Of a stretch of 64,000 nucleotides of DNA, positions 58,795 through 62,825 are shown in pieces. The position numbers and the translations under genes were made by a program. Source of the stretch: a phage. Under the pieces are notes generated by a model. That model was not told the DNA's origin. It saw only the letters and a list, made by a program, of their open reading frames with translations, and ran no database searches. Each line of letters starts with the position of its first letter. The stretch's first letter is position 1. Location of the stretch: the sequence record PZ445489.1. The stretch is one strand, 5' to 3'.

Positions 58795-58823
58795 TTGCTA
58801 AACGCTTCAAATTCTTGTATAAT
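58795..58823 (+). promoter_or_regulatory. Early sigma70-type promoter
   Basis: TTGCTA-17 nt-TATAAT with downstream TTCATAAATTGAT box. Confidence 0.65.
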
Positions 58824-58861: not shown

Positions 58862-59377
58862 ATGGCTAAGCAGAAAAACGCAAAAACTCAAGCAGCTACT
58901 ACAGTTAAAACTTTCCCGCAGACTGAGGCTAACCGCAAAGCTCGTCTGGAACGCCACCTGCGCAAGCACCCTACTGATGCTCAAGCTGCACAGGCACTGA
59001 ATCGTCCGGCTCCGATTCGTCAAAAGCCGAAGGCTAAGAACGCTACTCGTTCTGTAGCCCGCCTTGTGACCTATGTACAAGGTTATGGTCACAAATCTGT
59101 TCCAGTAACACTGAGTTTCAATGCTGGTGCAGAATTGTTCCCTCGTAATGGCATGGCCATGAAAGATTACGAGAAAGCAGTTAACCAGAAACGCAAACCA
59201 ACGGCAGATGTACTGCGTGATGCTCGTGGACAGTTTGGTTCTGTTAAGCCAAATATCTTCGGTGTAGAGTATAGCAAAGATAACGTTCGTGCTCTGTGTT
59301 ACGGTGTAGGCATTAAGTTCACGGGTGATTCTGCTCGTAAATCTGCTAAACCAGCTCGCAAGCGTAAAGCGAAGTAA
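58862..59377 (+). CDS. Hypothetical basic protein (possible nucleic-acid-binding)
   Basis: 171 aa, Lys/Arg-rich, host-optimal codon usage suggesting high expression. Confidence 0.5.
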   Translation: MAKQKNAKTQAATTVKTFPQTEANRKARLERHLRKHPTDAQAAQALNRPAPIRQKPKAKNATRSVARLVTYVQGYGHKSVPVTLSFNAGAELFPRNGMAMKDYEKAVNQKRKPTADVLRDARGQFGSVKPNIFGVEYSKDNVRALCYGVGIKFTGDSARKSAKPARKRKAK

Positions 59378-59441
59378 TAGATAAGTAGGGGCGAAAGCCC
59401 CTACAATCTACTAATTCTCTAACTAATCAAGGATATTTTTT

Positions 59442-59657
59442 ATGTTCTCTAAGAAACCACGTTCTGTTACTGAAATCGTTGCTTCCTTTACCACTATCAC
59501 TGATGAGCTTCAAGCTCGTATTGAGGCTGATCAAAAAATCGCAGCTGATATTCAGAAACAGCAGGAAGAACTCGCTTTAAAGTTGGCTGAAACTAACAAG
59601 AGTGAAAAGTCTGCCCAAACTATTATGGAAAATATCCTTAAACTGCTGGGCAAGTGA
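59442..59657 (+). CDS. Hypothetical small coiled-coil protein
   Basis: 71 aa ORF flanked by GNRA-type hairpins. Confidence 0.45.
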   Translation: MFSKKPRSVTEIVASFTTITDELQARIEADQKIAADIQKQQEELALKLAETNKSEKSAQTIMENILKLLGK

Positions 59658-59665
59658 TTTAAATC

Positions 59666-59688
59666 AGGGGGCGAAAGCCCCTCTTATT
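59666..59688 (+). terminator. Terminator-like GGGGC-GAAA-GCCCC hairpin
   Basis: Hairpin followed by TCTTATTT. Confidence 0.5.
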
Positions 59689-59698
59689 TGGAGAAACT

Positions 59699-59935
59699 AT
59701 GCGTAATTTTGTAGCAAAGAATGATTTTAACCGTGCTAGCACCCATAAGTCCACTAGAGATTATACACGACTTTCTAGTCATGAGGTAATGGATACCTGT
59801 TATGAAGAGCTGGAAGGTAGCTGGAATGAATGGCCTGACTTTTCTATGGAAGAGAACTGGGATGTCAGTGAGGATATGCTTCCTGGTTTTAAAGACCCCA
59901 AGAAGTGGGAGTCTATTAAAGAGACAGCTCTTTAA
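59699..59935 (+). CDS. Hypothetical acidic Trp-rich small protein
   Basis: 78 aa; acidic stretch EELEGSWNEWPDFSMEENWDVSEDM. Confidence 0.45.
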   Translation: MRNFVAKNDFNRASTHKSTRDYTRLSSHEVMDTCYEELEGSWNEWPDFSMEENWDVSEDMLPGFKDPKKWESIKETAL

Positions 59936-59963
59936 TAGTTTTCTACACAATAAAGGATAAGTT

Positions 59964-60665
59964 ATGAAAGTAAAACCATTTGGTATGCTAGATATTGAAT
60001 CTCTAGGAACTCCGGGAGATTGTGGTACTACTCATATTGTAATGCCTTCTTTCGCTTTTGTGGCTATGCATGGGATTGATAAAGACCCTGATCTAGTGTT
60101 TGTTACTTTAGATGTACAAGATCAGCTTAATTCTGGAGCTAAAGTTACGGCATCTACTCTAGCATTCTGGATGGATCAAGCTAAACATAGCCCGTCTGCT
60201 ATCCACATTATGGAAGCTATGAAGGAACGTAATCCAAAACTGATTGCCTTCCAAAATGGTAAACATCATTGCACTAATAAACTCGGCTCTAACTATGCTG
60301 CCTTCTCTATGGCTAAAAACATTATGGAATTGGCTCTAGGCGACAATGCTTTGTACTATGGCAATGGCCCAGAGTTTGATATGACTATCTACTCTGCAAA
60401 TACGTTCCATGCTGGAACCAATGAAGAGGTAGTTCCGTGGAAATTCTGGAATTTGGGCAATGTTCGATCTCTTCGTAATCTCTGGATGCAAGCTGGATAC
60501 AGTTATAAGGCTCTAGAGACCGAAGGTATTAGCTGGGCAATAGCTAAAATGGAGAAGATGGACACTATTCGTTATGGGATCTATCCGGTTAAGCATGATC
60601 CTGCATTTGATGCCTTAGTTGAAAGCTATTGTGTTGCAGCTATGATCGAAAAAATGAAAATTTGA
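59964..60665 (+). CDS. DEDDh-family 3'-5' exonuclease (DexA-like)
   Basis: 233 aa; N-terminal MLDIESLG (D-x-E) and C-terminal HDPAFDA (H-x4-D). Confidence 0.55.
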   Translation: MKVKPFGMLDIESLGTPGDCGTTHIVMPSFAFVAMHGIDKDPDLVFVTLDVQDQLNSGAKVTASTLAFWMDQAKHSPSAIHIMEAMKERNPKLIAFQNGKHHCTNKLGSNYAAFSMAKNIMELALGDNALYYGNGPEFDMTIYSANTFHAGTNEEVVPWKFWNLGNVRSLRNLWMQAGYSYKALETEGISWAIAKMEKMDTIRYGIYPVKHDPAFDALVESYCVAAMIEKMKI

Positions 60666-60971: not shown

Positions 60972-61610
60972 ATGACTACTCGTATCTCTAAAACTCGCGC
61001 TCTGGCAACTATCAAATCTCTGGAAGCTAAAATCCGTAAAGCTACTGAACAACAGCTTCTGATCGCTGTTGGTGAAGGTAAGGATAAAAATAAGGTTGTA
61101 GTTGGCGCTGCAATCGAAGTAGACGATCTATCTGCTCGTATTAAGGCAGATTTCCAGTCTCTGCTGGATATGATGTCCCAGCGTGATCGTATCAAAGCTG
61201 CTCTGATTAAGAGCAATGCGGAAACAATCGTTGAGATTGGCTCTCGTAAGATGACTGTTGCGGAAGCAATTGAAGCTAAGCGTTCTATGGAACTTAAAGC
61301 TCAACTGCTGGCTAACATGCGTAAGCAGTTCCATGCTGCTACGGTTAAGTTTAACACGCAGAAAGTACAGTTTGATGCTAAATATGAGCGTTTGCAGGAT
61401 AGCATGGCTACCCGCGATAAGAAAACTTCCGAAGATGAAGTTAAAATGCAGCTCAACCTGCTGGAACTCAAGAATACTCCATTCTTGATTGATCCGCTGG
61501 AACTGGAGAAGCTGATTAAGCAGCATGACGAGGAATATCAGGACTTTGCAACAAATGTTGACTTTGTTCTGTCCGAGTCTAACGCCTCTACCTTCATTGA
61601 AGTAGAGTAA
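60972..61610 (+). CDS. Hypothetical protein (coiled-coil rich)
   Basis: 212 aa, host-optimal codon usage, AGGAAG RBS. Confidence 0.5.
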   Translation: MTTRISKTRALATIKSLEAKIRKATEQQLLIAVGEGKDKNKVVVGAAIEVDDLSARIKADFQSLLDMMSQRDRIKAALIKSNAETIVEIGSRKMTVAEAIEAKRSMELKAQLLANMRKQFHAATVKFNTQKVQFDAKYERLQDSMATRDKKTSEDEVKMQLNLLELKNTPFLIDPLELEKLIKQHDEEYQDFATNVDFVLSESNASTFIEVE

Positions 61611-62052: not shown

Positions 62053-62370
62053 ATGACTTTTCATATTTTGATTGATGATGTGCGTAATCTTCACGGAATG
62101 GACATTATCATTCGAACCCCAGAAGCCGCTGTCGAGTTTCTGAATAAAACTGATACCACAGGCCACTTCGTTTATATGGATAATGACTTGGCTGTAGATG
62201 GTATGGAAGGTTATCAAATTCTTCGTTTACTCTTAGAATTTGGGCAGAGACCAAAGAAAGTGGTACTAGTAACCTCGAACCCAGTAGCTAAGCAACATAT
62301 GCGTAATGATTTGCTTGACTTAGGGTACAAAGAAAACCCCAATCGTGTTGAATATGATTGGCAGGAGTAA
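62053..62370 (+). CDS. Standalone receiver (REC/CheY)-like domain protein
   Basis: 105 aa; ILIDDV, VYMDNDL...GMEGYQIL and VVLVTSNP segments resemble response-regulator receiver motifs. Confidence 0.4.
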   Translation: MTFHILIDDVRNLHGMDIIIRTPEAAVEFLNKTDTTGHFVYMDNDLAVDGMEGYQILRLLLEFGQRPKKVVLVTSNPVAKQHMRNDLLDLGYKENPNRVEYDWQE

Positions 62371-62375
62371 AAAGA

Positions 62376-62825
62376 ATGAAGGCAGCTTTGCTTTTAGTAG
62401 CTGCCCTTACCTTCAGCTTTAGTAGTCAGGCATCGCACGATGCAAAAGAAATAGATTGCATTGCTAAAAATATCTATTTCGAAAGTCGTGGTGAGGGCAT
62501 AAAGGGAATGACGGCGATTGCACACGTTACTAAAAACCGTGTAAACTCCGGTAAATTCCCAGATTCCTACTGTAAAGTAGTATATCAGTCTAACCAGTTC
62601 TCTTGGGTATCTAAGAGACCAAAAGTTGATAAAACTGATGAGGCTTGGCAAACCGCTAAGAATTTAGCTAGAGTGATATACTACGTTGATTTACCACAAG
62701 ATCCTACACATGGAGCACTATACTTCCATAGTGGTAAAGATAAACCTTACTGGACAAAGAAGTTTAAGAAAACAACTAAGATTAAGGGACATACGTTTTA
62801 TAAACCTGTTGTCACTAAAACTTAA
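62376..62825 (+). CDS. Secreted cell-wall hydrolase-like protein (SleB-type) with signal peptide
   Basis: N-terminal MKAALLLVAALTFSFSSQA signal peptide; IAKNIYFESRGEG...AIAHVTKNR...QFSW core; AGGAG RBS. Confidence 0.55.
   Translation: MKAALLLVAALTFSFSSQASHDAKEIDCIAKNIYFESRGEGIKGMTAIAHVTKNRVNSGKFPDSYCKVVYQSNQFSWVSKRPKVDKTDEAWQTAKNLARVIYYVDLPQDPTHGALYFHSGKDKPYWTKKFKKTTKIKGHTFYKPVVTKT

Follow-up and report, generated by a model that had tools for sequence, protein, structure and literature searches.

The founding member of the Pfam family PF16473, Rv2179c of Mycobacterium tuberculosis, is a cellular 3'-5' exoribonuclease of about 170–180 aa whose substrate is RNA. Among the phage proteins of this family, biochemistry is available only for exonuclease A (DexA) of T4, a DNase that acts on single-stranded DNA and oligonucleotides (PMC12153337). 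Its catalytic motif is composed of D7, E9, D119, H186 and D191, equivalent to D12, E14, D103, H162 and D167 of Pol III epsilon; a figure legend of the same paper carries 'E12' at the position where the DexA sequence has E9 (PMC12153337). The corresponding gene of phage T5, T5.087, was entered in GenBank as a 'putative metallopeptidase', and hundreds of phage records (most T5-like genomes) repeat this label. Several orthologues have already been re-annotated as 'exonuclease' in RefSeq, and our literature search found no functional, biochemical or genetic study of T5.087.

The window analysed here is a 64,000-nt stretch of phage DNA (PZ445489.1), and its source is a T5-like phage (Tequintavirus). 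It contains an orthologue of T5.087 with its own Shine-Dalgarno sequence:

59952 to 59957, + strand: Shine-Dalgarno AAAGGA of the exonuclease gene, read from the sequence, 6 nt before the ATG
59964 to 60665, + strand: exonuclease gene, an ATG-to-TGA ORF of 233 aa; T5.087 orthologue, putative DEDDh 3'-5' exonuclease of the Rv2179c-like/DexA family

The first-pass annotation had placed the ORF at these positions on this strand, and our analysis confirmed both. The encoded protein shares 93.6% aa identity with the product of T5.087, and the gene occupies the same position between the same neighbours as in T5, from which it differs by sequence drift only. Pairwise comparison with the orthologues of T5, SPC35 and an Epseptimavirus gave dN/dS values of 0.04–0.06 (about 0.05) at dS of up to 1.5; this is therefore a genuine protein-coding gene under strong purifying selection. 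The Shine-Dalgarno sequence is unpaired in the predicted RNA fold and has the same letters in four phages. Matches to the 702-nt gene were found in 286 phage genomes at 80–98% nucleotide identity, and one preprint reports the T5.087-type gene as one of just eight CDS with conservation throughout the Tequintaviruses (bioRxiv 10.1101/2025.06.16.659957).

The catalytic residues are distributed over three motifs, accompanied by a further conserved element around a tryptophan:

59988 to 60008, + strand: ExoI motif LDIESLG (aa 9–15); D10 and E12 are the same in 23 of 23 homologues and equivalent to DexA D7 and E9
60360 to 60383, + strand: ExoII motif GNGPEFDM (with D139), in which N134, G135, F138 and D139 are invariant; D139 is equivalent to DexA D119
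60441 to 60452, + strand: KFWN motif, with an invariant W162 that is common to DexA (W152) and the canonical family
60594 to 60614, + strand: ExoIII motif HDPAFDA (aa 211–217, H211-x4-D216), in which H211 and D216 are invariant and equivalent to DexA H186 and D191

The earlier assignment to the DnaQ/RNase T-like exonucleases had been based on the first and last of these elements, D-x-E in LDIESLG and H-x4-D in HDPAFDA. Two short motifs are weak evidence by themselves and may arise by chance; a D-x-E in the first 30 residues combined with an H-x4-D in the last 40 occurred in 0.5% of composition-preserving shuffles. We accept the pair as real because it is conserved in 23 homologues together with the central aspartate: D10, E12, H211 and D216, as well as N-G-P-x-F-D with D139, are invariant in 23 of 23 sequences, down to 35% identity. 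The central acidic motif, the absence of which had been named as grounds for refuting the assignment, is thus present, and T4 DexA has its catalytic residues at the five aligned positions, which bears out the proposed family. As read from the sequence, the H-x4-D form of ExoIII assigns the protein to the DEDDh subtype (h, not y). The same motif aligns with H-N-A-L-D-D of the canonical family profile, and KFWN aligns both with KFWN of DexA and with PWKFWN of this profile. Outside the catalytic residues, conservation extends to T65, F68, W69, P158, W159 and W162, which match the canonical profile and DexA in the alignments (T-x3-W-W and P-W-K-F-W-N motifs).

The profile searches directly support the family membership. 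The HMM search that the first-pass annotation had proposed returned PF16473 (Rv2179c-like 3'-5' exoribonuclease domain) above its gathering threshold (32.1 bits versus a cut-off of 27), with a match that covers only aa 8–180 and is the single Pfam match of the protein at E up to 1. PHROG 255, 'exonuclease', matched at 9e-52. Some homologues in which the exonuclease is part of a fusion score just under the PF16473 threshold. With RefSeq, Pfam and PHROG 255 all recording an exonuclease, this identity is already known. NCBIfam and PADLOC contained no match to the protein; the PADLOC library represents defence systems, not anti-defence proteins.

When 1.84 billion representatives were searched exhaustively with the profile, the T5.087-type subfamily proved to be small, with 12 clusters at E <= 1e-30 and 33 at E <= 1e-10. 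At E <= 1e-3 the same search returned 794 clusters, mostly from a shorter canonical family of 170–200 aa, and 30 members drawn from it were used to build the canonical family profile (A8). In hhalign, the T5.087 profile matched A8 over its full length including ExoIII (99.9% probability, E 4.8e-34, 173 aligned columns). In comparison with the canonical family, the T5.087 subfamily features two insertions, a beta-hairpin region at approximately aa 85–108 and a helical region at approximately aa 176–205, the latter preceding ExoIII. It also has a specific conserved stretch after ExoI, GTPGDC-G-T-T-H-I-x-M-P-S-F-A-F-V.

Searches of the PDB by sequence were informative only with the canonical profile. 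With the exonuclease sequence alone, all matches were to designed armadillo repeats, spurious and due to low complexity, and the 23-sequence profile returned no match, whereas A8 matched the DexA structures 8KEL and 8KEN at 1.8e-21 and did not return Rv2179c. The link to solved structures runs only through Foldseek and the intermediate family profile. The AlphaFold2 model, computed from the 23-sequence alignment, has a pLDDT of 92.5 and a pTM of 0.91. In the Foldseek search against the PDB, the best match was E. coli RNase T (E 1.4e-4, TM 0.52/0.58), and the TREX1 homologue Plex9.1 and human 3'hExo were also identified; all of these are DEDDh enzymes, and TM values of 0.52–0.58 represent moderate similarity of the model to the solved folds. 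DexA entries were absent from the best 50 Foldseek matches in the PDB, and the predicted viral structures matching the model are labelled exonuclease, DexA, DnaQ-like or Rv2179c-like. The model thus adopts the RNase H-like alpha/beta fold of DEDDh enzymes, and taken together these comparisons support placing the T5.087-type protein among the Rv2179c-like/DexA-family DEDDh (DnaQ-like) enzymes.

These results bear directly on the label under which the gene is best known. If that label were right, the protein would be a zinc metallopeptidase resembling M14 carboxypeptidases. The AY543070 entry attributes it to a 'match to InterPro family IPR000834', and from there it was copied into hundreds of records; a 2025 preprint likewise counted the 'metallopeptidase' as a protein-degradation function among its eight conserved Tequintavirus CDS (bioRxiv 10.1101/2025.06.16.659957). 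Within the protein, we identified one segment that could account for such a match. Residues 149–159 (HAGTNEEVVPW) fit the pattern of zinc-carboxypeptidase signature 2. However, no peptidase family was found in Pfam at E up to 1 or in NCBIfam, the HExxH motif and the first carboxypeptidase signature are absent, and H149 occurs in only 12 of the 23 homologues. Because no peptidase model matches, HExxH is missing and the only signature present includes this poorly conserved histidine, the label seems to stem from a pattern matched by chance. Both the fold and the whole of the profile evidence indicate a DEDDh nuclease; a metallopeptidase identity is refuted at the level of both sequence and fold, and we give it practically no chance of being correct. 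The correction has value in its own right, as a core gene is mislabelled in hundreds of records and in at least one comparative paper.

We infer that the product of the T5.087-type ORF is an active 3'-to-5' exonuclease of the Rv2179c-like/DexA family that depends on metal ions, and we consider this very probable. By analogy with other DEDDh enzymes, two Mg2+ ions would be coordinated by D10, E12, D139 and D216, the attacking water would be activated by H211 as general base, and 5'-mononucleotides would be released singly from a free 3'-OH end. This combination of two metals, histidine-activated water and mononucleotide release from the 3' end is what we would predict with high confidence for the enzyme. 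A protein that kept the fold, lost catalysis and served as a nucleic-acid-binding or structural partner might explain the subfamily insertions and the unusual strand formed by the conserved stretch after ExoI. However, inactive homologues typically lose catalytic residues, whereas the five catalytic residues here are strictly invariant under strong purifying selection, making a catalytically dead protein very unlikely.

The active exonuclease that we favour is encoded among genes for DNA precursors and replication, at the end of the nucleotide-metabolism block. The gene order ahead of it comprises ribonucleotide reductase (nrdA/B), dihydrofolate reductase (frd), thymidylate synthase (thy), RNase H (rnh) and several small ORFs, and the same early-region order is found in T5 and in Salmonella phage SPC35. 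The genes immediately upstream are organised as follows:

58795 to 58823, + strand: promoter TTGCTA-17-TATAAT, in a region 98% identical to the T5 promoter annotated P-H 207
58862 to 59377, + strand: T5.089 orthologue (DUF7022; Pfam PF22887, 258 bits), first gene of the string
59699 to 59935, + strand: T5.088 (T5p086) orthologue, 78 aa, DUF7230-like (PHROG 4586, 2.5e-39)
59913 to 59938, + strand: RNA hairpin across the T5.088 stop codon, followed by TTTTCT (dG -19.5 kcal/mol, z -3.25)

The promoter equivalent to P-H 207 precedes the string of T5.089, T5.088 and T5.087 orthologues, and the T5.089 orthologue is syntenic in T5, SPC35, Roth49 and L007. Together with the position of the exonuclease gene downstream of thymidylate synthase and RNase H, this promoter agrees with the earlier description of the locus as lying among early genes. 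In T5 and SPC35, the exonuclease gene has RNase H on one side and the phage tRNA region on the other. A tRNA scan of the 64-kb window found none, and the counterpart of this region is therefore placed beyond the window end.

The sequence does not fix the substrate, because PF16473 holds both a DNase (DexA) and a named exoribonuclease (Rv2179c). By analogy, single-stranded DNA and oligonucleotides would be the favoured substrates: among the phage members, biochemistry exists for DexA alone, the gene adjoins DNA-precursor and replication genes, and in Rhodobacter phages the gene of a distant homologue accompanies that of a DNA polymerase (directly upstream of it in phage RcAqua). The likely job of the T5.087-type enzyme would be to trim, in the manner of DexA, the ends of single-stranded DNA and oligonucleotides in replication, recombination or homing, and in nucleotide turnover, and it may act together with the small disordered T5.088 protein. 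The biology of T5 differs from that of T4 in ways that count against this job. The T5 DNA polymerase is known to proofread by itself. During T5 infection, pre-early functions destroy the DNA of the host, whose free bases are then excreted (PMC10644984), which makes a DexA-style scavenging of host DNA less obviously useful. The gene is a conserved core gene, and the explanation offered by DexA transfers poorly to it since T5, unlike T4, does not recycle host DNA.

This excretion, rather than reuse, of host DNA breakdown products (PMC10644984) is one of several observations compatible with RNA as the physiological substrate. The fold and chemistry would then be the same, and the enzyme would be an Rv2179c/RNase T-like 3'-5' exoribonuclease that trims or degrades RNA from the 3' end, be it fragments of host or phage mRNA, primers or the precursors of phage tRNAs; it could also supply ribonucleotides to the adjacent ribonucleotide reductase pathway. 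The Pfam family is named after an exoribonuclease, RNase T is the best solved-structure match of the model, several homologues are annotated as 3'-5' exoribonuclease, and RNase H and the tRNA region flank the gene in T5 and SPC35. However, these annotations are transferred labels rather than experiments, DexA as the only phage member with biochemistry is a DNase (PMC12153337), and the distant homologue is paired with a gene for a DNA polymerase. None of the sequence features that we identified tells an RNA substrate from a DNA substrate, and we regard a primary role on RNA as a serious but less probable alternative.

For enzymes of this kind, the first-pass annotation had suggested host nucleic acids or signalling nucleotides as possible targets. 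The degradation of nucleic acids from the 3' end fits the family and is plausible. DEDDh exonuclease chemistry needs a free 3' end. Cyclic signalling nucleotides do not fit and are poor candidate substrates, because they offer no such end to a DEDDh enzyme, and the Pfam and PHROG matches place the protein in a nuclease family unrelated to Acb1, Apyc1, Acb5 and ring nucleases.

In the T5.088 orthologue directly upstream, the N-terminus is basic (MRNFVAKNDFNRASTHKS...), and the C-terminal half is acidic and rich in aromatic residues. The match of this protein to DUF7230 is weak; a further match is to the PHROG 255 profile, in its N-terminal part, and this profile spans both proteins. T5.088 and the exonuclease are fused in the homologues P0015, P0020, P0021, P0022 and P0027 and in that of Klebsiella phage Roth49; in Klebsiella T5-like phages (Roth49, 334 aa) and in several metagenomic T5-like phages, the single polypeptide is encoded at the syntenic position. 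This fusion in other T5-like phages speaks for a functional, and probably also a physical, link between the two. In the model of the fused P0021 homologue, the T5.088-like N-terminal part is predicted to be mostly disordered with one helix, so that the model gave no view of how this part docks. An alignment that mixed T5.088-like proteins with exonucleases (A3) had misplaced C-termini and was left out. In the window, the two genes are separate and in different frames. We also considered whether a frameshift could produce the fusion in the window phage and rejected this, as the exonuclease frame contains a TAA at 59958–59960 before the ATG and the T5.088 frame runs into a TAA and then a TAG.

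The hairpin at the end of T5.088 leaves the ribosome-binding site of the exonuclease gene free in the predicted RNA fold. An Epseptimavirus keeps this hairpin with two compensatory pair changes, and the same element is annotated as a 'terminator' in PP836394. We consider it a candidate for a partial terminator or for an element that stabilises the RNA.

Between the DUF7022 gene and T5.088, the window phage carries a cassette of approximately 280 bp with a 71-aa ORF, and the hairpin GGGGCGAAAGCCCC stands once at each end of it. T5 lacks this cassette and has a single hairpin, and in metagenomic T5-like relatives the slot carries a PF21825 protein (70.6 bits). PF21825 corresponds to Sequestin, which was shown to be a sponge of the Thoeris signal 3'cADPR (bioRxiv 10.1101/2025.07.12.664507). 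The 71-aa ORF itself shows no similarity whatever to Sequestin and has no Pfam match, and was rejected as a candidate for this function.

The proximity of this variable slot raises the question of whether the T5.088/T5.087 pair could be a counter-defence or defence-interacting module. The exonuclease would then remove single-stranded DNA or linear nucleotides made by immune systems, such as DRT poly-dA, retron msDNA or Hailong oligo-dA, thereby neutralising some systems and triggering others. In addition to the cargo slot directly upstream with its PF21825/Sequestin proteins in metagenomic relatives, T5 is known to interact with systems that produce single-stranded DNA, phage exonucleases can trigger Hailong or retron-Septu (reviewed in PMC13434031), and host takeover or anti-immunity is the assumed task of most T5 early genes to which no function has been assigned (PMC10644984). 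However, the argument is one of guilt by association. The nucleases implicated so far are different ones, a 5'-3' exonuclease in the case of Hailong and possibly D15 in that of retron-Septu (PMC13434031), and cyclic signals present no 3' end to a DEDDh enzyme. The PADLOC search, with its library of defence rather than anti-defence systems, returned no match, and a conserved core gene, as opposed to an accessory one, is atypical of anti-defence cargo. Based on this, we consider a role of the pair in defence unlikely. A more specific form of this idea, which we hold to be quite unlikely, would treat T5.088, in the part of a disordered adaptor with one basic and one acidic half, and T5.087 as a two-part core counter-defence module or as an Achilles' heel sensed by the host, with non-genomic single-stranded DNA and linear products of immunity (DRT poly-dA, retron msDNA, Hailong oligo-dA) as its targets.

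For the exonuclease, the fusion to T5.088 and the cargo slot, occupied by Sequestin in a relative, provide handles for functional work. Our analysis otherwise adds little new biology and confirms that T5-like phages carry a DexA-type exonuclease.

Among the known enzymes, E. coli RNase T and Pol III epsilon share the fold of the T5.087-type protein and the D-E-D-H-D catalytic arrangement, but belong to other Pfam families, show no single-sequence similarity and reach only 12–13% identity in structural alignment. Rv2179c is matched by the same Pfam model as the T5.087 protein, yet this cellular enzyme does not contain the two insertions. T4 DexA also lacks both insertions, differs in the strand after ExoI and has no DUF7230-type partner. 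Its identity to the exonuclease studied here is only ~19%, and the single-sequence match to DexA in hhalign is weak (41%, E 2.8e-4), becoming decisive only via the family profile. D169 of DexA, involved in 5hmC recognition, has no clear counterpart in T5.087; T5 DNA is not known to be modified. On the other hand, DexA (exonuclease A; PDB 8KEL/8KEN; sequence from NC_000866) is matched by PF16473 like T5.087, at 79.9 bits, and is of similar size (227 aa versus 233 aa). DexA is a homo-oligomer that switches between dimer and tetramer. D10, E12, D139, H211 and D216 of the T5.087 protein align with D7, E9, D119, H186 and D191 of DexA, and the KFWN tryptophan is common to both. Finally, both are non-structural proteins of virulent coliphages and are encoded among other DNA-metabolism genes.

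The gene for the DEDDh exonuclease (T5.087 orthologue; window 59964–60665, + strand) and that for the DUF7230-like T5.088 orthologue directly upstream (59699–59935, + strand) are separate in Tequintavirus and Epseptimavirus, whereas Klebsiella T5-like phages and metagenomic relatives encode the two proteins as a single ORF of 324–334 aa. This arrangement is a case of gene fission or fusion. The features considered here are as follows (window coordinates, unless a relative's locus is named).

58862–59377: DUF7022 protein gene (T5.089 orthologue), first gene downstream of the equivalent of the T5 promoter P-H 207
59385–59682: cassette of ~280 bp containing a 71-aa ORF
59442–59657: the 71-aa ORF, PHROG 2380
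59913–59938: hairpin spanning the T5.088 orthologue's stop codon, with TTTTCT on its 3' side
60972–61610: 212-aa ORF, "tail fiber protein" according to PHROG 1491 and RefSeq SPC35
62358–62825: ORF with a signal-peptide-like N-terminus
L004:3728–4732 and L007:6001–6978: fused T5.088-like/exonuclease ORFs of T5-like relatives
L007:5760–5954 and L008:5760–5954: PF21825 protein gene of metagenomic relatives (PF21825, 70.6 bits)

An out-of-frame ORF in the window (59802–59960) ends in ...FLHNKG, and because this C-terminus resembles the ...FNNKG linker of the fused proteins, the sequence suggests that the separate and fused states would differ by a small indel and a stop codon. The hairpin at the T5.088 stop codon is predicted to fold stably (dG -19.5 kcal/mol, z -3.25) and is preserved in an Epseptimavirus with two compensatory pair changes; its counterpart in PP836394 is annotated as a "terminator".

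Residues 149–159 of the exonuclease (window 60408–60440) read HAGTNEEVVPW, which matches the zinc-carboxypeptidase signature 2 pattern. The histidine of this segment is not conserved among homologues, and the pattern match is probably the source of the propagated "metallopeptidase" annotation of T5.087. The "tail fiber protein" label of the 212-aa ORF looks doubtful: its T5 counterpart, T5.085, is annotated only as "hypothetical", and the ORF is surrounded by early genes. Syntenic counterparts of the ORF at 62358–62825 are annotated as endolysin or cell wall hydrolase and contain PF07486 (Hydrolase_2); this early-region gene is predicted to encode a secreted cell-wall hydrolase.

The DUF7022 gene adjoins the T5.088/T5.087 pair in all T5-like phages examined. 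In the window, the hairpin GGGGCGAAAGCCCC occurs twice, once at each end of the cassette (59385–59404 and 59667–59682), and T5 carries one hairpin and no cassette at the same site. The cassette is intact in the one Epseptimavirus compared and present in the Salmonella phage SPC35, where a 1-nt insertion truncates the 71-aa ORF. This distribution looks like gain or loss through recombination between the hairpin repeats. A Pfam search with the 71-aa ORF returned no match.

In L007 and L008, the equivalent of window slot 59405–59666 is occupied by the PF21825 gene, directly 5' of the fused DUF7230-exonuclease gene. Sequence comparison showed the window 71-aa ORF to be unrelated to this family, and its identification as a Sequestin was rejected. 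PF21825 corresponds to Sequestin, reported to act as a sponge for the Thoeris signal 3'cADPR (bioRxiv 10.1101/2025.07.12.664507), and the slot upstream of the exonuclease may be a site for anti-defence cargo.
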